From: a bacterium
GTDB lineage: Bacteria; Actinomycetota; Acidimicrobiia; Spongiisociales; ZC4RG35
Direction: 5' to 3'
Assembly: GCA_024638655.1 (NCBI GenBank)
Contig: JAHEJW010000001.1
Location: 18,043-82,042, forward strand
Length of the DNA: 64,000 nucleotides
Shown: positions 9,346-57,644 of the stretch, piece after piece
Layout: each line of letters begins with the position of its first letter
Position numbering within the stretch: the first letter of the stretch is position 1
Program-made: the position numbers and the translations under genes
The notes under the pieces: model-generated
Told to the model about the DNA's origin: nothing
The model's input: the letters and a program-made list of their open reading frames with translations, nothing else
The model's database searches: none

Positions 9346-9385
9346 GTCGGCGAAATCCTGGAGGGGGTGGGAGGTCGTCGCGGTC

Positions 9386-27998: not shown

Positions 27999-28071
27999 CA
28001 GCCATCTACGTTAAGCCGGAACACCATCAAGCGATTGGGTGTTGCCGTCTTGGCAGGAGAGAATGAGGTCA

Positions 28072-28446: not shown

Positions 28447-28457
28447 ACCCGATCTGA

Positions 28458-29612: not shown

Positions 29613-29654
29613 CAGCGCGGCTGATTCTGGCCGAAGAAAGGGATCGCCCTAGGG

Positions 29655-34531: not shown

Positions 34532-34535
34532 TCCT

Positions 34536-36014: not shown

Positions 36015-36016
36015 AA

Positions 36017-40943: not shown

Positions 40944-41563
40944 TCGCCCCCCTCGCTCTCGACCGTTCCGAGCGGCTGAAATGCCGGAAACGGTCCGATG
41001 GCGCCGTCGGTCTCGGGGATTGCCCAGTCGAAACTGCGCCGTCCTCCGAAGAGCTCCTGCATCTCATCTGTGTTGACGACGACCGGCCGAGCCTTCTTCA
41101 GCCACGTGACCAGATCGCGCGCTTTGTCCGGTGTCACGCCTTCGATCAGCTCATAGTTGACCTGCACGGCCGGCGCTCCACCGCAAGCGCCGATGCACTC
41201 GGCATGCTCGACCGACAGGAGCCCTTCTTCGTCGGTCTCACCGTGGGGCACGCCCGATTCGTCCTCGACGGCGTGCATCACTTCATCTCCACCAAGCAGC
41301 ATGCAGGAGATGGATGTGCAGCAGGAGATCAGATACTTGCCGGTCCGCTCCCTCTTGTACATCGTGTAGAAGCTCGCCACGGAGAGCACCTGCGCCGGGG
41401 TGATCTCACACCACCGGGCGACCTCCTCCATCCCGGTCTCGGTCAGGTGCCCTTCCTCGGCCATGGCCAGGTAGAGGAGCGGCATGACTGCCGATCGCTT
41501 CTGCGGGTAAAGGTCGATGATTTCGCGGGCACGCTCCTGGGTGCTCTCCGACCAGTGGCTCAT
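40940..41563 (-). CDS. nuoE: NADH-quinone oxidoreductase subunit E (24-kDa, 2Fe-2S)
   Basis: Thioredoxin-like 2Fe-2S subunit with CCTSISC....CIGACGGAP cysteines. 207 aa. Confidence 0.9.
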   Translation of the reverse strand: MSHWSESTQERAREIIDLYPQKRSAVMPLLYLAMAEEGHLTETGMEEVARWCEITPAQVLSVASFYTMYKRERTGKYLISCCTSISCMLLGGDEVMHAVEDESGVPHGETDEEGLLSVEHAECIGACGGAPAVQVNYELIEGVTPDKARDLVTWLKKARPVVVNTDEMQELFGGRRSFDWAIPETDGAIGPFPAFQPLGTVESEGGE

Positions 41564-41642
41564 CGGAGTGGGAGAATAGGGAGCAGGGAATACACGGGCG
41601 AAACCAGCGGAGAGGCTTCATTTCGCTGCAAAAAGCGCCCTC

Positions 41643-43010
41643 TCACCGATCTACGTCGCCCATCACCGGGTCCATGGACGCGATGGTCGCCACCGTGTCC
41701 GCAACAAGGCTATCTGCCATGGCGATTGGCAGACCCTGGAGGTTGTAGAAAGAAGGGGCCCGGGTGTGCATGCGCCACGGCATCGGCCCACCGTCTGCCA
41801 CCAGGTAGCAGCCGAGTTCGCCGCGTGGGGACTCCACCGCCACATAGGTCTCGCCGGCCGGCACCTTGAAACCTTCGGTGAATAGCTTGAAGTGGTGAAT
41901 CAGCGCCTCCATCGATTCGTCGATGCGAGCTCTGGGTGGGGGTGTGATCTTGCGGTCATCGATCCTGTAGTTGCCTTTGGGCATGGAGTCCATCACCTGC
42001 TCGACGATCTTCAGTGACTCTTCGATCTCTTCGACCTTGACCCGATAGCGGTCATACACGTCACCCCGCTCGCCAAGCGGCACGTCGAACTCGTACTGAT
42101 CGATACCCGAGTAGGGAAAAACCTTCCTGATGTCCCAGTCCACGCCGCTAGCCCTTAGTGGGGGGCCGGTGATGCTGTAGGCGATGGCTTCCTCGGCCTG
42201 GATTATGCCTACGTCCCGGGTTCGAGAAAGCCAGACCGGGTTCTCTTTGAGCAGATCGTCGTACTCCTGAAGACGGACTGGCATCTCCTTGAGAATCGCC
42301 GCGACGTCGTCCTTCCATCCGGGAGGAAGATCAGCGGCCACGCCACCCGGGCGGATGTAATTGTGGTTCATTCGGAGCCCGGTGGCCTTCTCGAAGAACG
42401 CGAGGATGGCCTCCCTCTCCCGAAAACCGTAGATCATCATCGAGAGGGCGCCGATGTCCAGACCGTTGGTTGCCAGAGCGACCAGATGGGAGGAGATCCG
42501 GTTGAGCTCGGTCATCAGGATCCTGATCGCGGCGGCGCGCGGTGGGACCTCGACGCCGAGGAGCCGCTCCACGGCAAGTGAATAGGCGAGCTCTTCGTGG
42601 AGTGGAGAGAGGTAGTCCATCCGCGTCACGTTCGTGGGCCCCTGGGCGTAATTGAGCTGCTCGGCGGTCTTCTCCATTCCGGTATGGAGATACCCGATGA
42701 TCGGCCGAGTTCGCCTGATGATCTCCCCCTCGAGCTCGATCTGCAGACGAAGAACCCCGTGGGTGGATGGGTGCTGGGGACCCATGTTCACGATCATGCG
42801 CTCATCGTCGTCAGCGTCCTCGTCGAACACGTAGTCATCTTCGACCACTCGACCGAACTGGGCGGCCAGCCGGTCCTCAGACTCGTGTTCGGAGATCTCC
42901 TGGCGGCCCTCGTCCGTGGGTTGGAACTGAGGCTCCTCGGTGCCTGCCACCCACAAGTCGAAGGTGTCGGTCTCTCCGCCGGCCTGGTCTTGTGTGTTCT
43001 CGTCGCTCAT
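41643..43010 (-). CDS. nuoD: NADH-quinone oxidoreductase subunit D (second operon) with an acidic N-terminal extension
   Basis: NMGPQHPSTHGVLRL ... SMDPVMGDVDR. Start at ATG 43010 (MSDENTQDQ...), 2 nt after the nuoC stop. About 70 acidic residues precede the conserved core. Confidence 0.9.
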   Translation of the reverse strand: MSDENTQDQAGGETDTFDLWVAGTEEPQFQPTDEGRQEISEHESEDRLAAQFGRVVEDDYVFDEDADDDERMIVNMGPQHPSTHGVLRLQIELEGEIIRRTRPIIGYLHTGMEKTAEQLNYAQGPTNVTRMDYLSPLHEELAYSLAVERLLGVEVPPRAAAIRILMTELNRISSHLVALATNGLDIGALSMMIYGFREREAILAFFEKATGLRMNHNYIRPGGVAADLPPGWKDDVAAILKEMPVRLQEYDDLLKENPVWLSRTRDVGIIQAEEAIAYSITGPPLRASGVDWDIRKVFPYSGIDQYEFDVPLGERGDVYDRYRVKVEEIEESLKIVEQVMDSMPKGNYRIDDRKITPPPRARIDESMEALIHHFKLFTEGFKVPAGETYVAVESPRGELGCYLVADGGPMPWRMHTRAPSFYNLQGLPIAMADSLVADTVATIASMDPVMGDVDR

Positions 43011-43012
43011 CG

Positions 43013-43486
43013 TCAGCTCACCTGATGGGCCTGCTTGAACTGGACCGGAACCGACCCCACCCCGAAGTCCTTCCGAAGCGGGTGACCTTCCCAATCGTCG
43101 GGCATCAGGATGCGCGTCAGGTCGGGGTGCCCTTCGAACTCGATGCCAAACATGTCGTACACCTCGCGCTCGGCAAAGTTGGCCCCCGGCCAGAGCGGCG
43201 TGAGCGATGCGATCGTGGGATCCTCTCGCCCCACCGAGGTGATCATGCGTAGCCGGATTCTGTGTTGCATCGACACGAGATTGGCAACGACCTCGAATCG
43301 CTCAGGCCTCAGACGCATCCAGTCGACCGCGGTGACGTCACCACATATCTCGAACCCCGCCTCCTTGGCGGCTCCGGCGAAGGAGAACCAGGCATCGGCG
43401 GGAACCCGCGCCACATCCTGGCCGTGAGAGTCCTCCCAGACAACGGCTTCGAACTGTTCCTTGAGATCCTCGAGCACCGGGCTCAT
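43013..43486 (-). CDS. nuoC: NADH-quinone oxidoreductase subunit C (second operon)
   Basis: [32 protein letters not shown]. Start at ATG 43486, forming an ATGA overlap with the nuoB stop. The track ORF from 43846 runs through nuoB in another frame and is rejected. Confidence 0.85.
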
Positions 43487-43950
43487 CTGACTATCTCGCG
43501 TGTCATTATCTTGTCGTGCAGGGTGAGGATCCCGTGCATGAGGCTCTGCGGGCCGGGAGGGCAGCCAGGCACATAGATGTCGACCGGAACGATCTGGTCG
43601 ACCCCCTGGACCAGGGCGTAGTTGTTGAACATGCCACCGGTCGAAGCACATGCACCCATCGAGATGACCCATTTTGGATCGGGCATTTGGTCGTAGACCT
43701 GGCGCAAAACCGGGGCCATCTTCTGACTGACGCGACCCGCCACGATCATGAGGTCGGCCTGGCGGGGGGAGGCGCGGAAGACCTCCATCCCAAAACGCGC
43801 AAGGTCGTAGTGGGCAGCTCCGGTGGCCATCATTTCGATGGCACAACAGGCCAGACCGAACGTGGCCGGGAACATCGAACGGGTCCGCGCCCAGTTGGCG
43901 GCACGCTCGACCGTGGTCATCAGCAGATTACCTGGGGGAGTCGTCGCCAT
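43483..43950 (-). CDS. nuoB: NADH-quinone oxidoreductase subunit B (second operon)
   Basis: [16 protein letters not shown] and PGCPP N2-cluster cysteine motifs. 155 aa. Confidence 0.9.
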
Positions 43951-43954
43951 CTCT

Positions 43955-44362
43955 TCAGGCGGCCCGGCGCGTCTCGGGTGCGAGATAGCGGGAACGTCGC
44001 TTCACATTCCAGTCGAGGGCGCCCCGCTTCCACACGTAAACCAGCGTCTCCAGGACGAAGAAGGTGAAGATGAGCACAGCTGCCACGCCGTACCAGCCCA
44101 GCTCGGTCCAGATGGAGCCCCAAGCGAACAGGAAGATGATCTCGACGTCGAAGATCACGAACAACATCGCCACCAGGTAGAACTTCACCGGGAATCTCTG
44201 AACGGGCTCGACCTCAGGAACGATGCCGCACTCATACGGGTCGAGCTTCTCCGGGGTCGGGCGGTTCGGCCGGAAGAAGCGGGAAGCCAGCAGCGATACT
44301 GCCACGAAACCCGCAGCCAGTACCAACATGATGCCGATCGGCAGGTAGTCGGCGAGAGTCAC
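43955..44362 (-). CDS. nuoA: NADH-quinone oxidoreductase subunit A (second operon)
   Basis: 135 aa, three TM helices, YECG motif. First gene of the 14-gene operon. Confidence 0.85.
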
Positions 44363-44396
44363 GCCCTGAGCTTAGGTCTCATCGGTCTTTGTGCGC

Positions 44397-44406
44397 GAAT
44401 TCGCAA
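44397..44406. promoter_or_regulatory. palindrome GCGAATTCGC flanked by TTTGTG / CAAAG in the nuoA2 / aminotransferase divergent intergenic region
   Basis: Read directly from the sequence, 35-45 nt upstream of the nuoA2 start. The flanks loosely resemble TGTG/CACA-type half-sites of Rex operators, but the match is weak. Confidence 0.2.
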
Positions 44407-45710: not shown

Positions 45711-46379
45711 TCAACCCAGCAGGTTGTCGGCCAGGTCGGCCAAGTCGGGAAAGACCAGCTCCGGTGGTGGATTGGCCATACCCCAGACCACGCCTCGTCT
45801 CTTGAGGAAGGCCGCTCGAGCCCCCACCGCCATGGCTCCGGCACAGTCCCAGTCGTGGGCCGCCACCAGCATCAGCTCGGCTATCGGGACGCCCAGTGAC
45901 TCGGCAACATGCTGATACGGAGCCGGGTTTGGCTTGAACTTCCCCACCTCCTCGACCGAGAAGACACGCTGGATGAACACGTGCAGTCCCGCATTCTCGA
46001 TCTGAGCGTTCGCCGCCTCGCTGCTCGAGTTGGTGAGAGCGACGAGCCGAAGATCTGCGTCGAATAGCCGCTCCATGGCGTTGTACACATCGGGATGAGG
46101 CGGGAGGCTCCGCATCGCCCCTACGATCTCCTGAGCGTCCTCGCCGCGCAGCCCCATACCTCTCTTGGCTGCAACGATGAGCAGCGCCTCGACACCTATC
46201 TCGTCGAAGGGTCGATAGGTGCCCAGCTCGTTGGCGACCAGGGATCCATGCAGCATGCGGGCGAACCACTCGCCGACGGGCGGGGCCGCACCAAAGCCCT
46301 TCTCCAATGCCTTGGAGATCGGCTCGAGACTCAGCAGGGTCTCGTTGACGTCGAAAACGAGTACAGGTTTGGCTGTCAT
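45711..46379 (-). CDS. HAD-superfamily hydrolase (haloacid dehalogenase type II-like)
   Basis: N-terminal FDVNETL (DxxxT-type nucleophile motif), a VALTNSS motif II-like block and a C-terminal HDWD motif. 4-nt overlap with the upstream menJ-like gene. Confidence 0.65.
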   Translation of the reverse strand: MTAKPVLVFDVNETLLSLEPISKALEKGFGAAPPVGEWFARMLHGSLVANELGTYRPFDEIGVEALLIVAAKRGMGLRGEDAQEIVGAMRSLPPHPDVYNAMERLFDADLRLVALTNSSSEAANAQIENAGLHVFIQRVFSVEEVGKFKPNPAPYQHVAESLGVPIAELMLVAAHDWDCAGAMAVGARAAFLKRRGVVWGMANPPPELVFPDLADLADNLLG

Positions 46380-47614
46380 GCCGTCGGCAGGGTACGCACC
46401 ATTGCGGCGAGGGCGTCATAAGCGCGCTCGCCGGCTTCCTTTTCATCCTCGTCCAGGAGGTTCGACATCACTTTCAGCGTCCACTCCATGAGCGGCCGAT
46501 TCCGCAGACCGGTATGAGCCAGCGTCCGCATGACGGACGGGTATCCGATCAGCTTCACGAAGATCCGGGCCATCTTGTAGTAGAGGCCGAACTCGTCCTC
46601 GAGGCGCTGGGGGTAGCGTCGCAGCAGCCCGGTGTCACCTGAAGCCACGGCCTCGCTCACATACCCGGCTGCGATACGACCCGTCTCGTATGCGTAGGAG
46701 ATGCCTTCCCCATTCCATGGGTTGATGGCACCGGCCGCGTCGCCGATAGTTATCCAGTTGTCCCCGACGAGTGGGCTCTTCGAGAAGGACATCGTGAGCT
46801 TCCCGCCGGTTGGCTTGCTGAGCTTTGTCTCTTCCCCGATGCCCCAGTGTTCGGGAGCGGTGGCGACATAGTCGTCCATCATGTTGGTGGTGTTCACGTG
46901 CTTCCATCGCTTGAACGTGGACAGCAGGCCCACCCCGACGTTTACCGTCCCATCGCCGAGGGGGAACACCCACCCGTACCCTGGCATCGTTGCCCCGCTC
47001 CTGTCCCTGAGATCCAGCTGGCTCTCTAGAAAGGGGTCTTTGGACATCGGAGAGGCGAAGTAGCCCCTCGCCGCCATCCCCATCGGATAGTCGCGTCGCC
47101 TCGACGAGCCAAGGTCGCGGCCGAAGCGATTCATCGAACCGTCTGCGATGACGGTCACGTCGGGAACCACCACTTCCTTTTCCCCTCCCGATGCCAGCTG
47201 GACAGAGGTGAGACGGCCGTCCTCGATCACGGGAGTCGCCGCGGTCTTCTCCAGGACTCGCACGCCCTCCTTCTCCGAGAGCCTCGCGACCTGCATGTCC
47301 AGGTCGCTCCTCCGAATGACCCCGCCCCAATTGGGAAAGCGGGAATGCACGGGCCAGGCCATCTCGATCATCAGATCGTCGCCGGCATAGGACCTCAGAC
47401 CAGTGATCCGATGGAACTCAGGAACATCGAAGTCGAAGCCCATATCGGTCAACTGGAGAATCGCACGTGGAGTGAGACCATCACCACAGGTCTTGTCCCT
47501 GGGATACTCCTTCTTCTCTGCCAGAGTCACGTCGTGACCCGCACGCGCCAGCCAGAAGGCGGCAGCTGCACCGGCGGGTCCGCCGCCGACTACGAGTACG
47601 GAGGGTGAAGGCAT
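46376..47614 (-). CDS. menJ: geranylgeranyl reductase-family flavoprotein, likely menaquinone side-chain reductase
   Basis: VLVVGGGPAGAAAAFWLARAG FAD-binding fold; PRDKTCGDGLTPRA, PGYGWVFPLGDGTVNVGVGLLST and IGDAAGAINPWNGEGISYAYETGR closely parallel mycobacterial MenJ (Rv0561c) as recalled from memory. Confidence 0.75.
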   Translation of the reverse strand: MPSPSVLVVGGGPAGAAAAFWLARAGHDVTLAEKKEYPRDKTCGDGLTPRAILQLTDMGFDFDVPEFHRITGLRSYAGDDLMIEMAWPVHSRFPNWGGVIRRSDLDMQVARLSEKEGVRVLEKTAATPVIEDGRLTSVQLASGGEKEVVVPDVTVIADGSMNRFGRDLGSSRRRDYPMGMAARGYFASPMSKDPFLESQLDLRDRSGATMPGYGWVFPLGDGTVNVGVGLLSTFKRWKHVNTTNMMDDYVATAPEHWGIGEETKLSKPTGGKLTMSFSKSPLVGDNWITIGDAAGAINPWNGEGISYAYETGRIAAGYVSEAVASGDTGLLRRYPQRLEDEFGLYYKMARIFVKLIGYPSVMRTLAHTGLRNRPLMEWTLKVMSNLLDEDEKEAGERAYDALAAMVRTLPTA

Positions 47615-47641: not shown

Positions 47642-48283
47642 ATGGATAGGGCGCAGGACGGCGGTAACGTCGCCGGCATGAGCGGGTTATCCCGTGCCAC
47701 CGTCTCCAGGCTCCCTCAATATCTTCGTCTTCTCGAGGACATCGAGACGGGTGACACCATCAGCTCGGATCTGCTCGCCGAGGCTGCAGGTGTAAACGCG
47801 GCCAACGTGAGGCGTGATCTCTCCGATCTCGGCTTTCAGGGAACCAGAGGAGTCGGCTACTCGGTCCCCAACCTGCGTGACCGAATTCGACGGGAGCTCG
47901 GAATCGAAAAGCGCCGAAAGGTGGCGATAGTCGGCGCGGGGAACCTCGGCACTGCGCTCGCTCGCTACGGAGGCTTGGCCAAGCGAGGCTTCGACGTGGT
48001 GGCGATCTACGACATCGACCAGGAGCGAATCGGCTCACTCATCGGCGACGTGAAGGTCCAAGACATATCGGAAATGCCCGGAGACTGTGGGAGCGGGCTT
48101 TACGACATGGCCATCATTGCGGTCCCAGCCAGAGCGGCGCAGACCGTGGCGGAGGGCCTGGTGGACGCCGGAATCAGCTCGCTGCTCAATTTTGCCCCGG
48201 TGCGGGTGTCGGTACCGGATGCCATCCCAGTCCGGCAGGTGGATCTATCAACCGAGCTGCAGATACTCAGCTACTACGGCTGA
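47642..48283 (+). CDS. rex: redox-sensing transcriptional repressor Rex
   Basis: N-terminal winged-helix (RLPQYLRLL) and C-terminal Rossmann NAD(H)-binding motif VAIVGAGNLGTAL. 213 aa. Divergent from menJ with only 27 nt between the start codons. Confidence 0.8.
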   Translation: MDRAQDGGNVAGMSGLSRATVSRLPQYLRLLEDIETGDTISSDLLAEAAGVNAANVRRDLSDLGFQGTRGVGYSVPNLRDRIRRELGIEKRRKVAIVGAGNLGTALARYGGLAKRGFDVVAIYDIDQERIGSLIGDVKVQDISEMPGDCGSGLYDMAIIAVPARAAQTVAEGLVDAGISSLLNFAPVRVSVPDAIPVRQVDLSTELQILSYYG

Positions 48284-48354: not shown

Positions 48355-48723
48355 CTAGCCCGCTACCGCTTCCTCCTGGGCTTCTTCAAATTGATGCAGT
48401 GCGACCAGGAAGACGAGGAAGAGCACCACGGAGACGAGCAGGAACGTGATTGGGATCACCCGGATCTCGAATGCGTTCAGCCCTTCGATGTTGTCTGGCT
48501 TGGGGCCCCGTGGGGCGTAGATGACGAACAGGAGCGACGTGATGCTCATCCACCCGAACGTGGCGGCACCGGTGACCAGGAAACCGAGCCGCTTGCCCAG
48601 ATTGGTGTAGTTGAACAGGTAGATCGACCCGTAGAAGAGGAGAACCGAGGCGATCGTCAGGATGATGCCTGTTACGAAGAGGTTGGCCGACAGAAGTGAC
48701 CTGAATAGCTCACGGAAGAACAT
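48355..48723 (-). CDS. small hypothetical membrane protein, last gene of the Rieske/cytochrome b operon
   Basis: 122 aa, 3-4 TM helices, 14-nt overlap with the diheme cytochrome c gene. Possible small accessory subunit. Confidence 0.4.
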   Translation of the reverse strand: MFFRELFRSLLSANLFVTGIILTIASVLLFYGSIYLFNYTNLGKRLGFLVTGAATFGWMSITSLLFVIYAPRGPKPDNIEGLNAFEIRVIPITFLLVSVVLFLVFLVALHQFEEAQEEAVAG

Positions 48724-50443
48724 TCTCTACCGTCCCTCCTTTCCCATCGAGATTTCCGCTCCGAAGGTAGGCGGCCACCAACTCGATGTCCTCCTGGGCG
48801 AGAATCGCCCCGAAGGCAGGCATGCGACCCGAGCCAAATCCGTTGAGGCCATAAGGCCGATTGGCCACCGAGCCGTTGATCAGGAAGTCCACGAGAAGGT
48901 CTTCGCCCAACTCAGCCGGGTCCTCGCCGAACTGAACCACGGGCCTCCCGTCCCAAAGAGCCGGGCCAAATCCGCCGGATCCCGCCTCCTGAGTGAAGGG
49001 GATGCCCGCCGAGAATCCGGCGGTGTGACACCGGGCGCAGTTCGCCAAGAAGAGCCCAACGGCTCGTTCGGCGTCATCTTCGGACACGTCTCTTCCGAGC
49101 TGGGCCGACATCGCTTCGGCAACTCCTGCGATGTCGATCTCCCAGGCGCGCCGCTCGGCCGCATTGACCAGGAAATCGAGCCCGGCTGATTCGCTTTCGA
49201 GGAGTTTCTCCTGGTTCTCGGCGGCGACCCCTGTGTTGATCGCCACGGTCTCCAGTCCACCCACCATCGCGGTCGCTGCGGCCAGGTCGGCCTGGCCGGC
49301 CGTCGACTCTGGGTTTGCCGGATCGAGCGAAACTGCGGTGAGCCGAGTCGGCACCGTGGCATCGACCGCTGCGGCAAATTGCCCGCTTATCGCGGACTCG
49401 GCCTGATCGGAGATCCCGTCTCCGTCGGTGTCCTCGCCTTCGGGAGGAGCATCCAGCTCCGCCTCGATCGCAGCGATGTTGAGAAGCAGGATCGGATCGG
49501 TCTCCGCGGCCGTCCTGAGCCGGTCGAGACCGGACTGCACCAAATCGGCGTCGGCGACAGCAGGATCCATAACAACCGGCTCGATCACCCGATAGAACTC
49601 GATCGCACTTTCGGAGATCTCCGACAACTCCGCTTCGGCGGCGTCCGACAAGCCGTCGGCGTCGGTATCGATGCCTTCGTCGGCAGAGTCGAGGATTTCG
49701 AGTGCGCGGTCGGCCAGTGGGACGATGAAGGCGGCGTTCCCGGGCGCCTGCTCGATCTCGGCGACGACCTGACGCTGATTGGCGATGGCCGTCTCCATCG
49801 TGGCGTCTGCATTCCCGAACCTCTGGAGTTGGATGTCGATCTCAGCTGCGGTCTTGTCGACCGCCTCCTGCTGGGGGATTTGGATGGTCTCGAGGTAGTT
49901 GACGACGTCTTCGATCTGCTTCTCGTTCATCGGGCCACCGCCATCGAGACCCCAGGCCGGCATCGGCGTGTTCCCTCGGCCATAGGTGAGCCAGTAGTTC
50001 ACTTCGTCTGCGTCATAGCGATAGAAGACGTCGTTGATGGCCGGCGCCGCCCAGGAGACTGTGACACCGGAACGCTTCTCCACGAACCTCGCCGAGCCAC
50101 CTACACCTAACGGCCCGTGGCAGCTGTAGCAGGCGAACTCCTCGACCAGGTGCTCGCCTCGCTCTACCGACGCTTCCTCGAACTCATCGACAAATCCTTC
50201 CTGCCGGTTCTGCTCACCCAAGAAGTAGAGGGGCAGGGAGATGGCGAGGAATGCCGAGGCTGCGATGGCCACCTTTTGGCCTGTCTCGAGCCGTCTGGTC
50301 TCCAATTCCTGGTCGTTGGTCCCGGGCTGGAGGTTCGGGGCCACCTCCTCTGAGCCGCGATTTCGCAAAGCCGACACCACGACGAGACCGAGCCACACGA
50401 TGCCGGCTACGACGGCGAGAACAGTGATGATGTTCGCGGTCAT
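48710..50443 (-). CDS. membrane-anchored diheme cytochrome c with a ~300-aa acidic insert between the heme domains
   Basis: N-terminal TM helix and two CxxCH motifs (CYSCH, CARCH), each followed by class-I-like cytochrome c sequence. The intervening region is Asp/Ala-rich with two DTDxDGxSD motifs. Confidence 0.75.
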   Translation of the reverse strand: MTANIITVLAVVAGIVWLGLVVVSALRNRGSEEVAPNLQPGTNDQELETRRLETGQKVAIAASAFLAISLPLYFLGEQNRQEGFVDEFEEASVERGEHLVEEFACYSCHGPLGVGGSARFVEKRSGVTVSWAAPAINDVFYRYDADEVNYWLTYGRGNTPMPAWGLDGGGPMNEKQIEDVVNYLETIQIPQQEAVDKTAAEIDIQLQRFGNADATMETAIANQRQVVAEIEQAPGNAAFIVPLADRALEILDSADEGIDTDADGLSDAAEAELSEISESAIEFYRVIEPVVMDPAVADADLVQSGLDRLRTAAETDPILLLNIAAIEAELDAPPEGEDTDGDGISDQAESAISGQFAAAVDATVPTRLTAVSLDPANPESTAGQADLAAATAMVGGLETVAINTGVAAENQEKLLESESAGLDFLVNAAERRAWEIDIAGVAEAMSAQLGRDVSEDDAERAVGLFLANCARCHTAGFSAGIPFTQEAGSGGFGPALWDGRPVVQFGEDPAELGEDLLVDFLINGSVANRPYGLNGFGSGRMPAFGAILAQEDIELVAAYLRSGNLDGKGGTVENVLP

Positions 50444-50449
50444 GGTCGA

Positions 50450-51331
50450 TCAGCCACCGATGCAGCTGGGGCCGCGGGGATAGCTGACGCTCAGCAGCTG
50501 GGATCGAGGGGTCTGGATGACCGTCCCCGTCTTGATGATGAAACGATCGCTCTGCACCTCGACCACGAAACGGTCGAGGTTGCGTGGAGCCGGGCCGGCG
50601 AAATACTCGCCGATGGAGCTGTATTTCGATCCGTGGCAGGGGCACTCGAAACCTTGGGACGTCGCACACCAGGGAACCCGGCACCCGAGGTGGACACACC
50701 GCTGAAAGAGAGCCATCAGACCGGCGGCTTCTACCCCGTCGCCTTCCATCGACTCGGGGACAACAGGGGACGGGACCACGTAGGCCCGAGCCTCCGGGAC
50801 GAAGACGGGGACAATCGAGCCATCGGCAGCAACCGTCTGGTTTTGAATGTCGGCGACCGTGCCGGCATCGACGTCGGTTCCGAAGCCTCCGCTCAGCTTG
50901 GGCCACATGAATGCAAGCGAGTTGATGCCCACCAGGCCCAGGAATGCGAAGAACGTCCCGCTCAACGCGCGGTTGAAGAACTGTCGCCGGGTGACACCGG
51001 ACTCCTCGGGTGTCACTTCGATGACCCGTTGCCGCTCTATCACCTGGACGCTTCCTCCAGCCGGGGCGAGCTCCTGGCTTGGCTCCGCTTCGACCTCTAC
51101 TTCGACTTCCGCAGGCTGGGGCTCGGAGACCGGCTCCGGCTCGGGCAAGGGCTCGACGCGCACGCCCTCCATCGACCGATCCGACCGACGAGTCTCCTCT
51201 GATACGCCGGCGGTGGGATCGGGGGCTGGCGCGTCCGCCCTCGAGCGCCGGAAAGCCACGGTGAATGCGCCAATCGCCCCCACGATTGCGAAGAGGGCAA
51301 CACCGATGAGAACCATGTTGGTGAAAGTCAT
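50450..51331 (-). CDS. Rieske [2Fe-2S] iron-sulfur protein
   Basis: Cluster boxes CVHLGCRVPW and CPCHGSKY, twin-arginine motif TRRQFF, N-terminal TM helix and an acidic Pro/Glu-rich linker. Confidence 0.85.
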   Translation of the reverse strand: MTFTNMVLIGVALFAIVGAIGAFTVAFRRSRADAPAPDPTAGVSEETRRSDRSMEGVRVEPLPEPEPVSEPQPAEVEVEVEAEPSQELAPAGGSVQVIERQRVIEVTPEESGVTRRQFFNRALSGTFFAFLGLVGINSLAFMWPKLSGGFGTDVDAGTVADIQNQTVAADGSIVPVFVPEARAYVVPSPVVPESMEGDGVEAAGLMALFQRCVHLGCRVPWCATSQGFECPCHGSKYSSIGEYFAGPAPRNLDRFVVEVQSDRFIIKTGTVIQTPRSQLLSVSYPRGPSCIGG

Positions 51332-52347
51332 TCGAAGTTCACCCAGTCCTTGAGGTCATCGAAGAAGACGCCGTCGCGCCACGGATAGGAGAAGTTGAAC
51401 CCCTGACCTCTGAAGAGCACACCGATGATCGTCAAGGTCGCAGATCCGGCCAGGAAGATCGAATAGAGCATGATGGCGAATTTGCGGTCAGTGGGACGGG
51501 TCGAGGGGTTCTTGTCGACGTAGGGGATCATCATGAACCCGATCAATCCGATGAAGAGTGGAACCATGACCCCTGCGACTTGGGGATCGAAGTAGCTCAG
51601 GAGCTCCTGGAGACCAAGGAAGTACCAGGGTGCCTTGGAGGGATTGGGCGTGGCATTGAAGTTGGCCGGCTCCAGCAGCGGGGAGTGGATCACGACCGAC
51701 ATGATGACGAGCAGCCCCGTGATCGCGAGCAACGCGCCGAACTCCATCAGCATCAGATGCGGCCACGTGTTCACTTTGTCGCTCGGCTCGGCTTTGACGT
51801 TCTGGATTGCCCGCGCCTTGACGACAGTGAGCAACCTCTGAGTCCTCACCCCTTCGGGCAGACCGGCCGGCGGAACGCTGGGTCTTGGGCTCACCAGACC
51901 GGCAACCTTGCCGTTTCCTCCACCACCATTGGAGGGAGCTACCGGGACAGTCTCTTCTTCGCCCATGGTGGCGACGGCCGCAGCAGGCTCCTCCGCCTCG
52001 GCGGCAGCCGCGTCTTCGTCCGGAATGACCGCGGCTGCGGGCGCCTCGAAAGGCTCCTCTTCCTCGGTGACGTCGGGCTCGATCGACTCCGGCTCATCGC
52101 CCGGTTCTGGGGTGGCCGGCTTGGTGATGGTCTCCACGTCGCCGGTCGCGACTGCCTCCGCCGCCTCTACGACCATCTCCTTTGGCTCGGGCTTGTCGCT
52201 CGCCTCTACCGGCGCCTCGATCTTGGGTGGCTCTACAGGCGGGCCTTCACCCTTCATCTCGGCCAGCACCTGCTCGACCGGCACACCCAACGCCTTGGCC
52301 TTGGCTTCTGCCGATCTCCTCAGGAGATCTTCTGGTATCTCAACCAT
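51328..52347 (-). CDS. cytochrome b C-terminal-domain protein (b6f subunit IV-like) with a ~200-aa hydrophilic N-terminal extension
   Basis: C-terminal three-TM domain with a PEWY-box equivalent (KAPWYFLGLQELL). AAGGAG RBS upstream of ATG 52347. The N-terminal extension is Ala/Glu/Pro-rich. Confidence 0.7.
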   Translation of the reverse strand: MVEIPEDLLRRSAEAKAKALGVPVEQVLAEMKGEGPPVEPPKIEAPVEASDKPEPKEMVVEAAEAVATGDVETITKPATPEPGDEPESIEPDVTEEEEPFEAPAAAVIPDEDAAAAEAEEPAAAVATMGEEETVPVAPSNGGGGNGKVAGLVSPRPSVPPAGLPEGVRTQRLLTVVKARAIQNVKAEPSDKVNTWPHLMLMEFGALLAITGLLVIMSVVIHSPLLEPANFNATPNPSKAPWYFLGLQELLSYFDPQVAGVMVPLFIGLIGFMMIPYVDKNPSTRPTDRKFAIMLYSIFLAGSATLTIIGVLFRGQGFNFSYPWRDGVFFDDLKDWVNFE

Positions 52348-52358
52348 TCAACAACTCC

Positions 52359-53135
52359 TTACAGAGGCCCCGAGATGCCGCCGTCCTTGCGAACCCGCCA
52401 GAAGTGAACGGCGAGAAACACGACCAGGACGAATGGGAAGAAGAGGACATGCAGAACGTAGAAGCGGAGCAAGGTCGAACCGCTCACTTCAACTCCTGCG
52501 AGAAGTGCGAACTTGACCTGGTCACCGATCACGGGGGAAAACCCAGCCATGTTGGAACCTACCGTGACAGCCCAAAGCGCCAGCTGATCCCAGGGCAACA
52601 GATAGCCGGAGAAGGAGAGGAACAAAGTGAGGAAGAGGAGGATCACGCCGACGACCCAGTTGAACTCGCGTGGCGGCTTGTATGCACCGTGGTAGAAGAC
52701 GCGACTCATGTGGAGGAAGACTGACAGGACCATGAGGTGGGCGCCCCAACGATGCATGTTTCTCACCAGAGAGCCGAAGGCGACGTTGGTGGACAACGCC
52801 TCCATGTCCGCATAGGCGATTTCGGCAGTGGGCGTGTAATAGAACATCAGGAAGATGCCGGTGATCGTGAGCAGGATGAACAGGAAGAAACTCAGGCCGC
52901 CCAGACACAAGGTGTACGACAGGCGGACTCCGTGCCGCTTCACCTTCACCGGGTGGAGGTGGTACAGCACGTTGTTCATCACCACGTAGGAGCGGTTCCT
53001 CGGGCTGTCCGAGTAGCCCTGTTTGAACGGGGAGCCCGGTCGGAGTATCGATTCGACAACCTGTGAGCTCCAGAGCTTCTCGTTCGTTTCCTTGATTCGC
53101 TCCTTGAGGCTGGTTCTTCCGTTTCCGTTGGCCAT
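52359..53135 (-). CDS. cytochrome b6-like protein (N-terminal four-helix cytochrome b domain with heme ligands)
   Basis: [50 protein letters not shown] and paired His ligands (LH...13 residues...H) in helices B and D. 258 aa. Confidence 0.85.
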
Positions 53136-53152
53136 TGAGTGTCTCTTCTTCC

Positions 53153-53602
53153 CTACCAGCGCATACCGTAGGAGTAGCCGTTTTTGAAGTCACGTTGACC
53201 GGTGTCGAAATCCCATGGGCGAAGATCGAGGCCGAGCTCGGCAGCCTGCTCGGCCAACGAGCCCTCGAACTTGCCGAGGGTGATCACGTTCGTAGGGCAC
53301 CTGTCGATGCACAGCTGGCATCTGGTGCACTCGTCCTCATCGACGATGAAGAAGCCATAGTTCTGGGGGTCCTCGCCAGGATGGTCGACATTGACACCTT
53401 CTGAAATCGCGTCCAGCGAGAGGTAATGGATGCACTTCCACGGACAGATATCGACACAGCCCTCACAGAGAATGCACTCGGCCTGGTCGATGTGGAGGAA
53501 CTGCTTGGGGCGAAGCTTGTCCTTGAAGTAGTCGCCCTCGACAACGGCGAGCTGATAGTCGTCTCTGATCGGCGGGATCTCATCGATGACACCTTTGGGC
53601 AT
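53153..53602 (-). CDS. 2x[4Fe-4S] dicluster ferredoxin
   Basis: [12 protein letters not shown] and [12 protein letters not shown]. 149 aa. TGATG overlap with the upstream membrane-protein gene, and immediately precedes cytochrome b6. Confidence 0.8.
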
Positions 53603-54234
53603 CAGCGATCACCCCTCACCAGTGGCCTGCCGTATGGCGAGGTCTTCTCGACAGGCTGGGCGCCTGCCGGCCGACCTTCCTTCATTCTCTGGATCTGGAT
53701 GGCGAGCACCGCTGCAAACCCGAGTAGACCCAGGCTGTAACCCATCTGGATCGAATCTCTGATCACCGCGTAGCTGATCTCGACGGTGTTGCCCAAGACG
53801 AGGAAAGGAGGGATCGCAAGGGCGACGCGCTGGCTCGACCATTCGAGATCGGTTTGGGCGAAGTTGAGCCACTCGCTCGGGACCATGCCGAAATAGAACA
53901 CCAGAGCCGACCAGGCGATGACCGCGGCCGTCGTGGCCCGGGCCCAGGTCATCTTCTGGTTGAGCACCCAGAGAAATGTCGCGCCCACAATGGCGAAGGT
54001 GCTGGCCCCCAGGACGATCACGTAGCCAACCGCCTTCCACCACATTCCCCTGGGGAACCAGTTCAGCTGATCCACCACGACCGGTACCTCGACACCGTTC
54101 ACCAGCTCGGTCTCCGGCAAGCTGGACCAATGGATCCAGATGACTCCGATGATGAGGCCGATCAAGCCGAACAGGATCAGCAACGACCCGATGGCCTTGC
54201 GGCGGCTATCACTCAGTTCTGCGAGGCGATACAT
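53602..54234 (-). CDS. hypothetical 4-TM membrane protein, first gene of the Rieske/cytochrome b operon
   Basis: 210 aa, four predicted TM helices, no recognisable cofactor motif. Translationally coupled to the ferredoxin gene. Confidence 0.4.
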   Translation of the reverse strand: MYRLAELSDSRRKAIGSLLILFGLIGLIIGVIWIHWSSLPETELVNGVEVPVVVDQLNWFPRGMWWKAVGYVIVLGASTFAIVGATFLWVLNQKMTWARATTAAVIAWSALVFYFGMVPSEWLNFAQTDLEWSSQRVALAIPPFLVLGNTVEISYAVIRDSIQMGYSLGLLGFAAVLAIQIQRMKEGRPAGAQPVEKTSPYGRPLVRGDR

Positions 54235-54395
54235 CGTCGGCTCTCGTGCGCGTCCCTATAGCTGTCTGGGCGTTTGTACCACACGGTGAAGGGCCTTTGT
54301 GAACCCGAACCGCACGCTACTCGCCCAAATGTAGCGGCGAAGAGGAGTCACGAAGTCGTTATGCTCCCGCCGTCGCGCCATCTAGAGGTTGAGGC

Positions 54396-55835
54396 TTGGC
54401 TCAGACGCAAAGCTCGAACATCAGAACCCTCCTCGGGGGCGGCGCAGGCGGAGACCGCCTGGCCGCAACGCATTTTCTGGTAGGTGCCGCGTTTCTCGTC
54501 CTCGGTGGGGCTTTCTCTCTGCTGTCGCTTCTATCGCTCAGATTCGCCGGGCTCTTCCCACTCACTTATGGCCGTTTCGAGCCAATGGCGAATCTCAGCC
54601 TGATCATCGGATTCGCAGTCATCTCCCTCGTAGGCGGTGTCTACTACGTGCTCCCAAGACTCACCGGGACCGTCCTGTGGCGAGATGAGATCGCCGGCCT
54701 GGGACTCCTGGGGACGGCGGGCATCGTCGTTCTCGGTCTGGCCGCCACCGCCCTGGGCTTGGGCAGTGGCCGCGGCCCATTCGACCTCCCCTGGTGGCTG
54801 AGTGTTCCGTTGGCGCTCGTGCTCGCCATCCCGGCGGTCGTCACCCTCGGAACGGTTGCCAACCGTGAGGAGCAGCGGAGTTACGTGTCGATCTGGTTCG
54901 TTCTCGGCGGAACTGCGTGGCTTTTCCTGCTGACGCTGGCGTATCTGGTGGGGGATCTGCCTTTTGTCGGGTCACTCGCTGTTGCCTATGCCGACGTCTT
55001 CTACTCGGCGGGATTGGTCACGCTCGTCGTGTTCACCTTGGGCACGGGCCTCTTCTACTACACGGTGGTGAAGGAGCTCGACGTAGCCCTGGCCAGTCGT
55101 CAACTGGCGATGTTGGGGTTTTGGTCTCTCGGCTTCGCCGCCGTGTGGTGGGGGGTCGCCCAGGTCATGTTCGGGCCCGGCCCGACCTGGGTCTCCGGTG
55201 TCGTGGCGGCCCTCGGTCTTGCCTTCCCGATAGGGGCGCTGGCGAACGCAGCCAACGTGGCGCTCACCCTCGAGGGCTCCTGGGGACGGCTCGAGGCCAA
55301 ACCCGGAGTCACCGCAGGTGTGTACGGACTGTTTCTCGGCGTCGGGGTTGCTTTCCTCGCCGCCATGGGCGGGTTCCGCTCCATCGCCGCAGTGACATCG
55401 TTGACCGCGTTCTGGGAAGCCATCGAATACGCCGCAGTTCTGGGTGCCGGCGCCTTACTCGTGGCAGGCATCAGCTTCCAGGCGCTGCCCCGGTTGCTGG
55501 GCCGCGAGATCCATTCCCTGGATCGGGCCAGGTCCTTTGCCAGGCTCACCGTGATCGGCGCCGTTGGGGTACTGGTCTTCATGGCTGCCTCGGGCGTGGT
55601 CTCCGGCTATTCGTGGATCGCCGGATCGAACTCGGCCGCCTACATCGACGCCGGTGAGGGCTGGCAGGCCGGGGCCGGCGAGGTCCCCGACGCACTCCTC
55701 CTGATAGCGATCCTGTTCGCCTTCGTCACCTTCGCAGGACAACTTGCATACGCCTCCACGGTCTTCGGGACGGTCACCAGGGGCAAGGCCACCACCCAGG
55801 AGTTACTGGTGACGGGGATGACCGACGATGAGTGA
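54396..55835 (+). CDS. heme-copper oxidase subunit I (CcoN)-like 12-TM protein lacking the canonical histidine metal ligands
   Basis: 12 predicted TM helices. FEPMANLSLIIGFAVISLVGGVYYVLPRLTG parallels the CcoN MHG...GGFGNYLVP block, and AVWWGVAQVM parallels WWYGHNAV, with His replaced in both; only 2 His occur in 479 aa. TTG start with AGAGG upstream. Confidence 0.55.
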   Translation: MAQTQSSNIRTLLGGGAGGDRLAATHFLVGAAFLVLGGAFSLLSLLSLRFAGLFPLTYGRFEPMANLSLIIGFAVISLVGGVYYVLPRLTGTVLWRDEIAGLGLLGTAGIVVLGLAATALGLGSGRGPFDLPWWLSVPLALVLAIPAVVTLGTVANREEQRSYVSIWFVLGGTAWLFLLTLAYLVGDLPFVGSLAVAYADVFYSAGLVTLVVFTLGTGLFYYTVVKELDVALASRQLAMLGFWSLGFAAVWWGVAQVMFGPGPTWVSGVVAALGLAFPIGALANAANVALTLEGSWGRLEAKPGVTAGVYGLFLGVGVAFLAAMGGFRSIAAVTSLTAFWEAIEYAAVLGAGALLVAGISFQALPRLLGREIHSLDRARSFARLTVIGAVGVLVFMAASGVVSGYSWIAGSNSAAYIDAGEGWQAGAGEVPDALLLIAILFAFVTFAGQLAYASTVFGTVTRGKATTQELLVTGMTDDE

Positions 55836-56589
55836 TCAGCTGAGCGCAGCGGCCGCAGCCCTGGGCATACCCGAGTCGCTGGTCGAAAGGTCCGCGGCGG
55901 CGCGCGCCGCCGAGACCGGATCCAGCGCCGATGAGATCCTGACGGCATGGGCCGGAGGCGAAGCGGCCCCGACGCCGACCCGGCTGGCCGATGAGGCACC
56001 TGAGCCAGAAACCGCACCCGTCCCCGAGGCGCCCACAGAGGAGCCTGCGACCCCCGAGGTCGTGATCGAGACTCCCCCGCCCCCGGCAGCCAAACCTGCG
56101 GCGCCGGTACCCGCCGGGCCCTATAAGCCGCCGGTGCTGGTTGGAGCCAGAGACAACCCGATGATCGTCCTGGCTGCCGCGGTCGGCCTGTTCGCGGTCA
56201 TCTTCCTGGTCGGGTTCGTGGGGCCCTCGTTCCAGGGAGAGGCCCCTGGAACACGCACCTCGGAGATTCAGTACTCGGCACGGGCACTCGACGGCAGGGG
56301 CGTGTATGCCTCGCTGAATTGCGGCTCATGCCACACCCAGTTGGTGCGGCCGGTCATCGCCGATGTGGGCCTGGGGGCCGTCACGGTTCACGACACCAAT
56401 CAAGTGATCGGGACGCGCCGGTTCGGGCCAGACCTTTCCAATGTCGGGGCGCGACTCAGCGAATCCCAGCTCGAGGCCGTCGTCATTGGGCTCGGCGAAC
56501 ACCCCGCCTACGTTCTCTCGTCGGAGAACGTGAGTGCGCTAGTGGCCTATCTGGCGGAGTCGCAGACCGCGGAAGCAACGGGGGGCTGA
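55828..56589 (+). CDS. CcoO-like membrane-anchored monoheme cytochrome c
   Basis: TM anchor then GRGVYASLNCGSCHTQLVRP...RRFGPDLSNVGAR, matching the CcoO/FixO heme region including the GPDL..VG.R motif. Its start overlaps the upstream stop (ATGAGTGA). Confidence 0.6.
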   Translation: MSDQLSAAAAALGIPESLVERSAAARAAETGSSADEILTAWAGGEAAPTPTRLADEAPEPETAPVPEAPTEEPATPEVVIETPPPPAAKPAAPVPAGPYKPPVLVGARDNPMIVLAAAVGLFAVIFLVGFVGPSFQGEAPGTRTSEIQYSARALDGRGVYASLNCGSCHTQLVRPVIADVGLGAVTVHDTNQVIGTRRFGPDLSNVGARLSESQLEAVVIGLGEHPAYVLSSENVSALVAYLAESQTAEATGG

Positions 56590-57644
56590 TGAGTGAGTAT
56601 CTGAGCGCAGCGGCCGCAGCCATGGGTCTCCCCGAGGTTCTCGTCGAGCGCTCCGCCGAGGCGAGAGCCACCGAGACCGGAGCCACCGTCGACGAAGTCC
56701 TCCAGGCGTGGGCCGGTGGCGGTGAGATCAGCGCACCTCCCCCGAAACCGGCTGAAGAACCTGCTGGTGAGGCGGCCGCCGAAGAGACGGCGGCTCCCGA
56801 AGAGACCCCGGAACCACAGGCAGCAGCAGCTCCAGTCGCCGCAACGGTGGAAGTCGCAGAGCCGTCGGCCACTGCCCGGGTTCCAACACGCGCTCCGGTC
56901 CCAGAAACGGTCAACTCTGCAGCAGCGGCGCGTCTTCCTGAGGTCGTGACCGTTCCGACTGCCGGGATCAGGGAAAAGACCAGCTTCGCCATCCCCAAGT
57001 GGCTGACCGCCGTTCTTCTGGTTGCCCCGCTCTTCGCATTGTTTGCACTGGGCGGATCGGCGACAGGTGAATGTGGTGCGGCAACTGAGTTGAGGGCGGA
57101 CGTCGTCACCGGCGAAATCGTCAACTGCGATGGCACCGAGTTCACCGGTCAGGCAGTCGGCGGAGGGGGGACCAACTTCATCGCACTCGGCGAAAGCATC
57201 TACCTGGGCGGCGAGGTCACCGGCGTCAACTGTGCCGGTTGCCATGGTCCGGCTGGACAGGGAGCGGGAGCATTCCCTTCGATGACCGGGGTCAACAACA
57301 CGTTTGGTGCATGCACGGACCACATCGAATGGGTGGTCTTGGGTACGGGTGGCTTCCAGGCGGCTGGCAGGAGTACCTACGGCGACACCGGGAAACAGGT
57401 TGGTGCCGCCGGCAACATGCCCGGGTTCTCGAGCAATCTCAGTGCGGAGCAGATTGCTGCCGTCGTCGCCTTCGAGCGCGCCAGGTTCGGTGGAGGCGAC
57501 GCCGATGCAGTGCTCACCGATTGTGGCCTCGTCGAAGAGGCGGGCACCGAGGGAGAGCCCGGAGAAGAGGGTGGTGAAGGCACCGGTGGTGAGGGCACCG
57601 GTGGTGAGGGCGGCACCGAGGCCTCAGCCGGCTCTTCCGGCTGA
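56589..57644 (+). CDS. membrane-anchored class I cytochrome c (CcoP-like partner) with a Gly/Glu-rich C-terminal tail
   Basis: ATGA overlap with the upstream gene. One CxxCH (CAGCHGP) in a class-I cytochrome c context (GNMPGF, LSAEQIAAVVAF). The C-terminal GEGTGGEGTGG tail is encoded by a 15-nt tandem repeat. The 441-aa track ORF from 56319 is an upstream over-extension. Confidence 0.6.
   Translation: MSEYLSAAAAAMGLPEVLVERSAEARATETGATVDEVLQAWAGGGEISAPPPKPAEEPAGEAAAEETAAPEETPEPQAAAAPVAATVEVAEPSATARVPTRAPVPETVNSAAAARLPEVVTVPTAGIREKTSFAIPKWLTAVLLVAPLFALFALGGSATGECGAATELRADVVTGEIVNCDGTEFTGQAVGGGGTNFIALGESIYLGGEVTGVNCAGCHGPAGQGAGAFPSMTGVNNTFGACTDHIEWVVLGTGGFQAAGRSTYGDTGKQVGAAGNMPGFSSNLSAEQIAAVVAFERARFGGGDADAVLTDCGLVEEAGTEGEPGEEGGEGTGGEGTGGEGGTEASAGSSG

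Follow-up and report, generated by a model that had tools for sequence, protein, structure and literature searches.

Does the small ferredoxin gene that lies inside a Rieske/cytochrome b operon of a member of the Acidimicrobiia (Spongiisociales; ZC4RG35) encode a redox subunit of that complex, and in which direction would electrons then pass through it? The operon is found in a window of 64,000 nucleotides (the whole stretch of DNA analysed here; assembly GCA_024638655.1, contig JAHEJW010000001.1, positions 18,043 to 82,042 of the forward strand), where seven minus-strand open reading frames (ORFs) are tightly packed at 48355-54234 in the ORF listing. They encode, from first to last, a membrane protein with four transmembrane (TM) helices (mem210), a 2x[4Fe-4S] ferredoxin (Fdx), cytochrome b6, a homologue of subunit IV (SUIV), a Rieske protein, a dihaem cytochrome c and a small membrane protein (mem122). 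This is the gene content and order, with the translational coupling, that an initial annotation made from the DNA letters had described, and all seven ORFs were recovered. The operon appears to be the normal, class-wide housekeeping complex III of Acidimicrobiia. Within it, Fdx is probably a bona fide redox subunit on the n-side of the complex, a reading to which we give a probability of about three in four, based on the conserved gene order and the homologies presented below.

Conservation of the ferredoxin within the operon

The seven genes are linked by short junctions. The genes of mem210 and Fdx share one nucleotide in a TGATG junction, those of SUIV and the Rieske protein overlap by 4 nt (ATGA) and those of cytochrome c and mem122 by 14 nt, and the other three junctions are gaps of 17, 11 and 6 nt.

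The conservation of this arrangement was examined with a pattern scan on one genome per species, using an alignment of ferredoxin homologues as query. It yielded at least 598 matching stretches, and the best 80 of them, all from Acidimicrobiia-type metagenome-assembled genomes (MAGs), are the 80 Acidimicrobiia genomes considered hereafter. When these were searched by tblastn with the proteins of the window, the seven-gene order was identical in every locus that was long enough, and the mem210 gene stood upstream of Fdx in 80 out of 80 loci. The loci L001 and L002 keep the seven-gene order as well; the outer flanks differ in the most divergent of the loci. Over the 80 genomes, the median identity was 83% for b6, 81% for Fdx, 72% for SUIV, 68% for mem122, 57% for the Rieske protein, and 47% for both cytochrome c and mem210. 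Fdx is as constrained as the catalytic cytochrome, and these two are the best-conserved genes of the operon.

More distant relatives give the same picture. Fdx had 603 matches at E <=0.001 in a library of 1.8 billion representative proteins, among them small relatives of 33-40% identity; for two of these (P0283, P0321), the cluster contains proteins listed by NCBI under Actinomycetota MAGs. When four of the small relatives served as seeds, a metagenome scan found 80 further, more distant loci. In these, profile searches recovered the order (mem210)-Fdx-b6-SUIV-Rieske-cytochrome c-(mem122) wherever the contig was long enough, and the mem210 gene again preceded Fdx in most of them.

We suggest that mem210 may anchor the ferredoxin. 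This protein had no match in Pfam, NCBIfam or, by phmmer, the PDB. Its AlphaFold2 (AF2) model shows four helices with a predicted local distance difference test (pLDDT) score of 62.9, and the best Foldseek hit against the PDB was no better than E 0.6. Also, mem210 carries a cytoplasmic C-terminal motif, SPYGRPL(V)(K/R)G (53602-53690, minus strand). The YGRPL part is kept in the distant locus L160 (7486-7962), where the rest of mem210 has diverged to ~30% identity.

Relatives of the ferredoxin and of the cytochrome b complex

Fdx contains two CxxCxxCxxxCP motifs separated by a 38-residue insert, and has specific N- and C-terminal extensions. Its eight ligand cysteines are invariant, and so is C57. 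This ninth invariant cysteine (CPWxC; 53432-53434, minus strand) lies right after the first cluster motif and is kept in all small homologues. Because its sequence bears no Sec or Tat export signal, Fdx is predicted to be cytoplasmic; a periplasmic location was rejected on the same ground. All of its Pfam matches were of the Fer4 type. No Pyr_redox or Fer4_20 protein was found among the ORFs of the cluster with Pfam, and a GltD-like FAD/NAD(P) domain was likewise absent from it.

Outside its own family, the best library matches of Fdx included the C-terminal domains of proteins of ~550-690 aa. Inspection of two of them, P0346 and P0335, showed FAD/NAD(P) oxidoreductases of the GltD-like kind. 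One relative of P0346 is annotated in Kuenenia as "putative NAD(P) oxidoreductase, FAD-containing subunit"; proteins of this kind are referred to here as NAD(P) oxidoreductases (NADPOR). A hidden Markov model of the Fdx family matched the GltD-like C-terminal domains with 45-81 bits, in one continuous match over both cluster motifs, compared with 43 bits for the window's own NuoI and <=20 bits for HdrA-like or NuoF-fused GltD proteins. By BLASTP, Fdx shared 36% identity over 78 aa (E 6e-17) with a Chloroflexota oxidoreductase, the long inter-motif insert included. Some of the NADPOR C-terminal domains also keep Cys57.

The genomic context of seven NADPOR-type proteins was consistent with this relationship: six were encoded in Rieske/cytochrome b6 clusters, and the seventh was cut by the contig end. 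In L085, L169 and L170 the order was NADPOR-b6-SUIV-Rieske-cytochrome c, which is the order of the window with Fdx in the NADPOR slot. The nearest outgroup relatives of Fdx thus appear, from sequence comparison, to be the C-terminal dicluster domains of ~600-aa GltD-like oxidoreductases linked to Rieske/cytochrome b complexes. The presence of a ferredoxin in such an operon had been judged unusual; the ferredoxin is present, but an FeS protein in this setting has precedent in clusters of anammox bacteria, Chloroflexota and Planctomycetes. The additional route for electron entry or exit that the initial annotation suggested would agree with proposals made for these relatives. Fdx is best understood as a stand-alone, membrane-proximal iron-sulfur (FeS) module of a known n-side subunit type.

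The cytochrome b6 has all four haem-b histidines (H128, H142, H229, H244), which are invariant in the orthologue alignment. A haem-ci motif, CxGG (TLCLGG, Cys77), is invariant in 79 of 79 orthologues and occurs as C-x-GG in all 71 distant b6 sequences; it predicts a covalent haem ci site. A clade-specific N-terminal motif (HLHP) with His59 is invariant in 78-79 orthologues. The protein ends with GISGPL, the exact end point of PDB cytochrome b6, and the PDB b6 chains align with it (E 4.6e-46; query 74-258 versus 32-215) up to their own last residue, with actinobacterial QcrB structures near the bottom of the same list (E ~1e-22). This b6 was assigned to a class by its scores with family models and PDB chains, its motifs and its pairwise identities. 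Among the family models, ExtP ranked first (296.8 bits), followed by generic cytochrome b6 (212 bits) and actinobacterial QcrB (111.5 bits, where the cutoff is 500). The NCBIfam models of the other components of actinobacterial bcc also remained far below their cutoffs (QcrA 22.3 of 275, QcrC 21 of 200). The b6-type split proposed at first sight is therefore borne out, by the end point of b6 and by its low score as QcrB. ExtP (NCBIfam NF040969) is the cytochrome b of a Geobacter selenite/tellurite reduction operon. It was not accepted as a functional assignment, as the score lies just above the cutoff of 290 and the gene context is wrong, and we treat the match as generic similarity between CxGG b6 proteins; SUIV reached only 55.3 bits against a cutoff of 150 with ExtQ, and there were no Ext-type neighbours at the cluster.

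In SUIV, three C-terminal TM helices are predicted, with the Qo motif APWY, which was present in every orthologue scored. The similarity to b6f subunit IV in the PDB covers residues 194-302 (E 4.8e-4). The helices are preceded by an N-terminal cytoplasmic extension of ~190 aa, made of a conserved 35-aa module and an Ala/Glu/Pro-rich linker; residues 1-190 consist of 17% Glu, 16% Ala and 14% Pro. The Rieske protein is composed of an N-terminal TM helix, an acidic linker, an internal Tat motif (TRRQFFNR), a second TM helix and a periplasmic cluster domain. Its cluster boxes are CVHLGC and CPCHGSKY, and CPCHGS-x-Y was found throughout 68 orthologues, a Ser/Tyr signature that would indicate the high-potential type. 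The cytochrome c has two class-I domains with haem motifs at residues 105 (CYSCH) and 469 (CARCH). Between them extends an Ala/Glu/Asp-rich linker of ~270 aa (residues ~190-460), in which thrombospondin-type-3-like Asp repeats (DTDADGLSD, DTDGDGISD) are possible Ca2+-binding sites; the Pfam TSP3_bac match was below cutoff. As for mem122, it has 3-4 hydrophobic segments and is conserved at the operon end, with no match in Pfam, NCBIfam or the PDB (phmmer), and is probably a supernumerary subunit.

Split cytochromes b with CxGG and APWY motifs form the APWY clade, of which no member has been characterised (Kao and Hunte, 2014; PMC4122944). Its hosts are delta-Proteobacteria, Chloroflexi, Nitrospirales, Planctomycetes, two Firmicutes genera and Actinobacteria (PMC4122944). 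By its motifs and its 53-65% identity to clade members, the b6/SUIV pair can be placed in this clade, with which it shares the split, APWY and CxGG; the usual motif of the clade is WCMGG, whereas the window has TLCLGG. The split is not new for Acidimicrobiia, since Ilumatobacter coccineum (Acidimicrobidae) is already listed among the actinobacterial split cytochromes b (PMC4122944). That paper contains no description of the ferredoxin, mem210, mem122 or the divergent CcoN-like operon presented below. The term "atypical" given to the operon in the initial annotation thus holds in comparison with Actinomycetes, but not within Acidimicrobiia, where the same order occurs in all 80 genomes.

The closest comparison is with the complexes of anammox bacteria. 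The Kuenenia locus recovered here (L084) corresponds to Kuste4569-4574; we take Kuste4569-4574 and Kustd1480-1485, the anammox-type complexes, to be subfamily G of Dibrova. The b6 of the window is 65% identical to a Chloroflexota b6 and 53% to Kuste4571, and its His59 aligns with His43 of Kuste4571. In the published AlphaFold 3 (AF3) model, His43 is the ligand of an extra haem b, which is located on the n-side where the two monomers meet, near the Kuste4570 ferredoxin domain (Arg511), and this NADPOR ferredoxin domain is next to the b6 dimer (PMC12954380). In L084, His43 and Arg247 of cytochrome b and Arg511 of the oxidoreductase fall at the positions given in PMC12954380. Like the operon described here, the anammox-type complexes have a split b6 that carries CxGG and the HLHP histidine, and the same high-potential Rieske signature; in the Chloroflexota-type NADPOR clusters, the FeS protein of the n-side is encoded immediately upstream of b6, like Fdx. 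The differences are also clear. The operon has a 149-aa dicluster module only, lacking the GltD-like FAD/NAD(P) domain and the N-terminal FeS clusters, with an extra 4-TM protein (mem210) ahead of it. Its SUIV has three predicted TM helices instead of five, plus the long cytoplasmic extension; its partner on the p-side is a dihaem cytochrome c, whereas theirs is a hexa- or octahaem or HAO-like protein; and its host is an aerobic actinobacterium.

Cyanobacterial and chloroplast b6f is the closest solved structure for both b6 and SUIV. The likeness comprises the four-helix b6 with a three-helix SUIV, the haem ci/cn motif and the CPCHGS-x-Y box of the Rieske protein. Electron delivery to haem cn by ferredoxin/FNR is a long-standing proposal for b6f. 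In contrast with b6f, the cluster had no match to cytochrome f or to the Pet small subunits PetG/L/M/N in Pfam and NCBIfam; the dihaem cytochrome c replaces cytochrome f, APWY stands in place of PEWY, and b6 has the N-terminal HLHP extension. Also, the ferredoxin is encoded in the operon and is likely a fixed subunit, whereas that of b6f is a transient soluble partner. The operon has the phylum in common with the QcrCAB complex of actinobacteria (bcc-aa3), presumably also the oxidation of menaquinol, and the pairing with a dihaem cytochrome c; in both, the Rieske protein bears additional TM helices at its N-terminus and a Tat motif in its interior. However, QcrB is a single protein of ~540 aa with no haem-ci motif, and an n-side FeS subunit is missing from bcc. 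The bound subunits PsaC (photosystem I) and NuoI (complex I) are, like Fdx, small 2x[4Fe-4S] proteins with an extended inter-motif loop; they form the terminal or relay wire at the cytoplasmic face of their complexes. Their sequence matches to Fdx are weak and their parent complexes different, so that the analogy is one of role only. The copy of the PDB searched with b6, Fdx, SUIV, mem210 and mem122 contained no structure of a member of this family.

Proposed role of the ferredoxin and competing roles

We hypothesize that the operon encodes a b6-type, menaquinol-oxidising Rieske/cytochrome b complex. It would contain haems bL and bH, a covalent haem ci and possibly an extra interfacial haem on His59, together with a Tat-exported high-potential Rieske protein, a membrane-anchored dihaem cytochrome c and an APWY Qo site. 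Fdx would be permanently bound at the cytoplasmic face, probably seated on mem210, as a minimal form of the NAD(P)-oxidoreductase ferredoxin domain of the anammox, Chloroflexota and Planctomycetes complexes, and its two clusters would constitute a wire between haem bH/ci (perhaps the His59 haem) and the cytoplasm. A high-potential Rieske protein combined with low-potential menaquinol would push the second Qo electron to a very low potential, and the FeS clusters could then pass some of this electron flow on to a low-potential acceptor in the cytoplasm, such as soluble ferredoxin, flavodoxin or a docked enzyme. Such an outward route would be an electron bifurcation, as proposed for the NAD(P)H-forming relatives: the Rieske subunits of Kuenenia were measured at more than +300 mV, and quinol-driven bifurcation has been proposed for the anammox complexes (PMC12954380). 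Our slight lean towards outward flow comes from the Ser/Tyr signature of the Rieske protein and from the MenJ-like gene and the nuo operon next door. The full model, outward direction included, is tentative, and we would put it at somewhat less than even odds.

Several points weigh against it. The whole argument is drawn from sequence and synteny, with MAGs as nearly all of the comparators. For Fdx, the AF2 model computed from a 13-sequence alignment is unusable (pLDDT 39.6), and the potential of the Rieske protein is deduced from its motif only. With the Kuenenia domain itself, Fdx has little sequence similarity (22.5 bits, 30% identity over 76 aa); what carries the link to Kuenenia is gene order together with the intermediates from Chloroflexota and Planctomycetes. 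The cluster encodes no FAD/NAD(P) module or other substrate site, and aerobic heterotrophs with complex I adjacent have no obvious need for a low-potential reductant made from quinol. Finally, flow into the quinone pool is favoured by Kao and Hunte (2014; PMC4122944), who proposed that the APWY clade runs in reverse, and by de Almeida (2016), who proposed flow into menaquinone for the anammox complexes, as cited in PMC5600118.

These two proposals favour the strongest alternative, in which reduced ferredoxin (supplied by 2-oxoacid:ferredoxin oxidoreductases and similar enzymes) or a docked reductase feeds the clusters, from which electrons reach haem ci/bH and then menaquinone at Qi; in a variant, the complex would operate in reverse (confurcation) at Qo. 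The complex III would then include a ferredoxin:quinone reductase, comparable to the FQR activity long hypothesised for b6f. This alternative draws on the same structural and genomic evidence as the outward model. Haem ci, whose CxGG motif is conserved here, is the proposed acceptor of ferredoxin electrons in b6f (PMC5600118), and the linkage of the cluster with complex I and Rex is what a general respiratory input module would show. On the other side, the conserved cluster encodes no ferredoxin-producing enzyme, and the measured potentials of the Kuenenia Rieske subunits were interpreted as outward (PMC12954380). The very low b chain expected from a high-potential Rieske protein with menaquinone would disfavour entry from carriers at ~-400 mV, but less than it favours exit. 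Taken as a complete account, inward flow is possible though rather unlikely; as a direction, it is nearly as likely as the outward flow that we prefer.

The FeS subunit could also have no external partner and act on the n-side as an internal electron buffer or as a bridge between monomers. In the first role, it would store the first electron for a concerted two-electron reduction of menaquinone at Qi, limiting semiquinone and reactive oxygen species. The lack of a substrate-binding module in the cluster fits this idea, as does the very high conservation of Fdx, typical of a buried structural or redox subunit, and haem ci is thought to buffer similarly in b6f (PMC5600118). However, the homologous domains of the relatives belong to wires leading to a FAD/NAD(P) site (PMC12954380). 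Two clusters in series and conserved surface extensions also suggest through-transfer rather than storage, and we regard a buffer as improbable.

Less probable still is that Fdx and mem210 are co-transcribed biogenesis factors, for example for haem-ci attachment or for Rieske or haem maturation, and are absent from the mature complex. The lack of a known homologue of mem210 would agree with such a function. In chloroplasts, haem ci needs a dedicated maturation system, and no such system is known in non-photosynthetic bacteria. However, assembly factors are rarely the most conserved products of an operon, whereas the median identity of Fdx is close to that of b6. Fdx is also homologous to a domain of a stoichiometric redox subunit in the related complexes, which are expressed according to complexome data cited in PMC5600118, and NADPOR-type clusters with the same CxGG b6 lack mem210.

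That the genes are neighbours by chance, or that b6 and SUIV are a recent frameshift split of a single QcrB, has next to no probability, since the ferredoxin and the flanking membrane genes are kept with b6 and Rieske in identical order in ~160 independent loci spanning 33-93% Fdx identity, b6 terminates at the canonical b6 C-terminus with just the 111.5 bits of similarity to QcrB already mentioned, and SUIV has its own AAGGAG Shine-Dalgarno sequence with an 11-nt spacer upstream of an extension of ~165-190 aa that includes a conserved N-terminal module. The b6/SUIV split is ancient.

The divergent operon and the neighbouring genes

Upstream of the Rieske/cytochrome b operon, three plus-strand genes at 54396-57644 are kept in divergent orientation in the Acidimicrobiia loci. 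They follow the order of the cbb3 oxidase CcoNOP: a CcoN-like protein, a FixO-like monohaem cytochrome c and a further cytochrome c. The CcoN-like protein is similar to CcoN structures (E 8e-20), with 99.9 bits for the ccoN model against a cutoff of 583, and contains 2 His in 479 aa. Aligned to CcoN of P. stutzeri (3mk7_A), its six ligand His are replaced (A65, A205, A255, Q256, I343, Y345). They are likewise missing in the 63 of 63 orthologues examined, and the position of the cross-linked Tyr is also substituted in all of these proteins. With all six haem/CuB ligands substituted, a function as a conventional oxidase is excluded for the predicted protein, which probably serves as a scaffold devoid of cofactors. 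CxxCH is still present in the CcoO-like protein and in the third cytochrome c.

A cytoplasmic N-terminal module of ~35 aa is common to SUIV, the CcoO-like protein and the third cytochrome c (52243-52347, minus strand; 55828-55960 and 56589-56720, plus strand), and occurs nowhere else in the window. Its consensus is ...IPExL(L/V)xRSAxA(K/R)A...G......L..W.GG, followed by a low-complexity linker (Pro/Ala-rich in the CcoO-like protein) and a TM helix. In the 80 genomes, 125 of its 131 matches fall within these three protein families, and it recurs in the distant L160 on SUIV and on a divergent cytochrome c (9196-9939, 6492-7316). It had no Pfam match. The sharing of this module between SUIV and the divergent cytochromes c suggests a physical or functional link between the assemblies that the two operons encode, and the module may be the docking motif that joins them. 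In the most elaborate form of this idea, a minimal bifurcating complex III of Acidimicrobiia and related Actinomycetota would be organised through this motif with the cofactor-less cbb3-derived scaffold and its two cytochromes c, which we consider speculative and unlikely. NADPOR-type clusters of Chloroflexota, Planctomycetes and other groups were also observed beside FixO-like or multi-domain cytochromes c (L085, 1-3125; L168, 8735-11575; L170, 3024-5435). The association of the clade with CcoO-like cytochromes may be older than Acidimicrobiia.

Table 1. Genes and other features of the Rieske/cytochrome b locus in the window, with the evidence for each
Feature	Position	Strand	Evidence
mem210, 4-TM protein, first gene of the operon	53602..54234	-	ORF, 210 aa; TM prediction; no Pfam match
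Fdx149 (Fdx), 2x[4Fe-4S] ferredoxin-like subunit	53153..53602	-	149 aa; Pfam Fer4 E 8.8e-12
Cytochrome b6	52359..53135	-	258 aa; Pfam Cytochrome_B PF00033 E 5.5e-46; NCBIfam matches
Subunit IV (SUIV) homologue	51328..52347	-	339 aa; Cytochrom_B_C PF00032 E 1.4e-7, residues 227-311
Rieske [2Fe-2S] protein	50450..51331	-	293 aa; Pfam Rieske and NCBIfam PetC-like matches
Dihaem cytochrome c, membrane-anchored	48710..50443	-	577 aa; Pfam Cytochrome_CBB3 and Cytochrom_C
mem122, small membrane protein, last gene of the operon	48355..48723	-	ORF, 122 aa; no family match
Divergent intergenic region between the two operons, 161 bp; presumed shared control region	54235..54395		Sequence
CcoN-like homologue of haem-copper oxidase subunit I	54396..55835	+	479 aa, ~12 TM helices; Pfam COX1 E 3.8e-19
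CcoO/FixO-like monohaem cytochrome c	55828..56589	+	253 aa, CGSCH; Pfam FixO E 1.3e-8
Third membrane-anchored monohaem cytochrome c	56589..57644	+	351 aa, CAGCH; Pfam Cytochrom_C
Rex redox-sensing repressor	47642..48283	+	NCBIfam Rex 256 bits, above cutoff

On the other side of the operon (Table 1), a gene for the repressor Rex lies directly downstream, as in 49 of the 80 related loci. Rex is a possible regulator of the operon, though the link is weak. A search of the window for the Rex operator TTGTGAA-N4-TTCACAA with <=3 mismatches gave 2 matches versus 0.8 expected, neither in the divergent intergenic region, and this number is not significant, since 2 or more matches also arose in 18 of 100 shuffles. 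One weak operator-like site, TTGTGCGCGAATTCGCAA (44389-44406, plus strand; 3 mismatches), is located upstream of nuoA.

The complex I (nuo) operon extends over ~28000-44362 on the minus strand, 4 kb from the cluster, and a homologue of MenJ-like geranylgeranyl/menaquinone reductases (46376-47614, minus strand) adjoins the cluster. In the distant L160, nuoABCD directly follow the Rieske/cytochrome b cluster on the same strand (12681-15594). The linkage between complex III and complex I is conserved, and it speaks for a housekeeping role of this complex III as opposed to an accessory one.

The APWY/CxGG clade is already known, and so are Rieske/cytochrome b complexes with cytoplasmic FeS/NAD(P) subunits. 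A limited literature search found no description of the ferredoxin-only variant with a 4-TM partner as a class-wide form, of the ligand-less CcoN homologue, or of the N-terminal motif common to SUIV and the divergent cytochromes c. Annotation can readily take the CcoN-like gene for a cbb3 oxidase, and inferences of high-affinity O2 respiration in Acidimicrobiia MAGs may err where they rest on it.

Soils, oceans, sponges and wastewater harbour abundant Acidimicrobiia, whose standard complex III the operon described here appears to encode. If it is a ferredoxin-only version of the anammox-type complex, it would be the simplest system in which to ask whether FeS clusters on the n-side tap or feed the low-potential branch of the Q-cycle. 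The same question bears on the generation of NAD(P)H in anammox bacteria and on ferredoxin-dependent cyclic flow through b6f. The operon would become considerably more interesting if a bifurcating or ferredoxin-coupled function were true.

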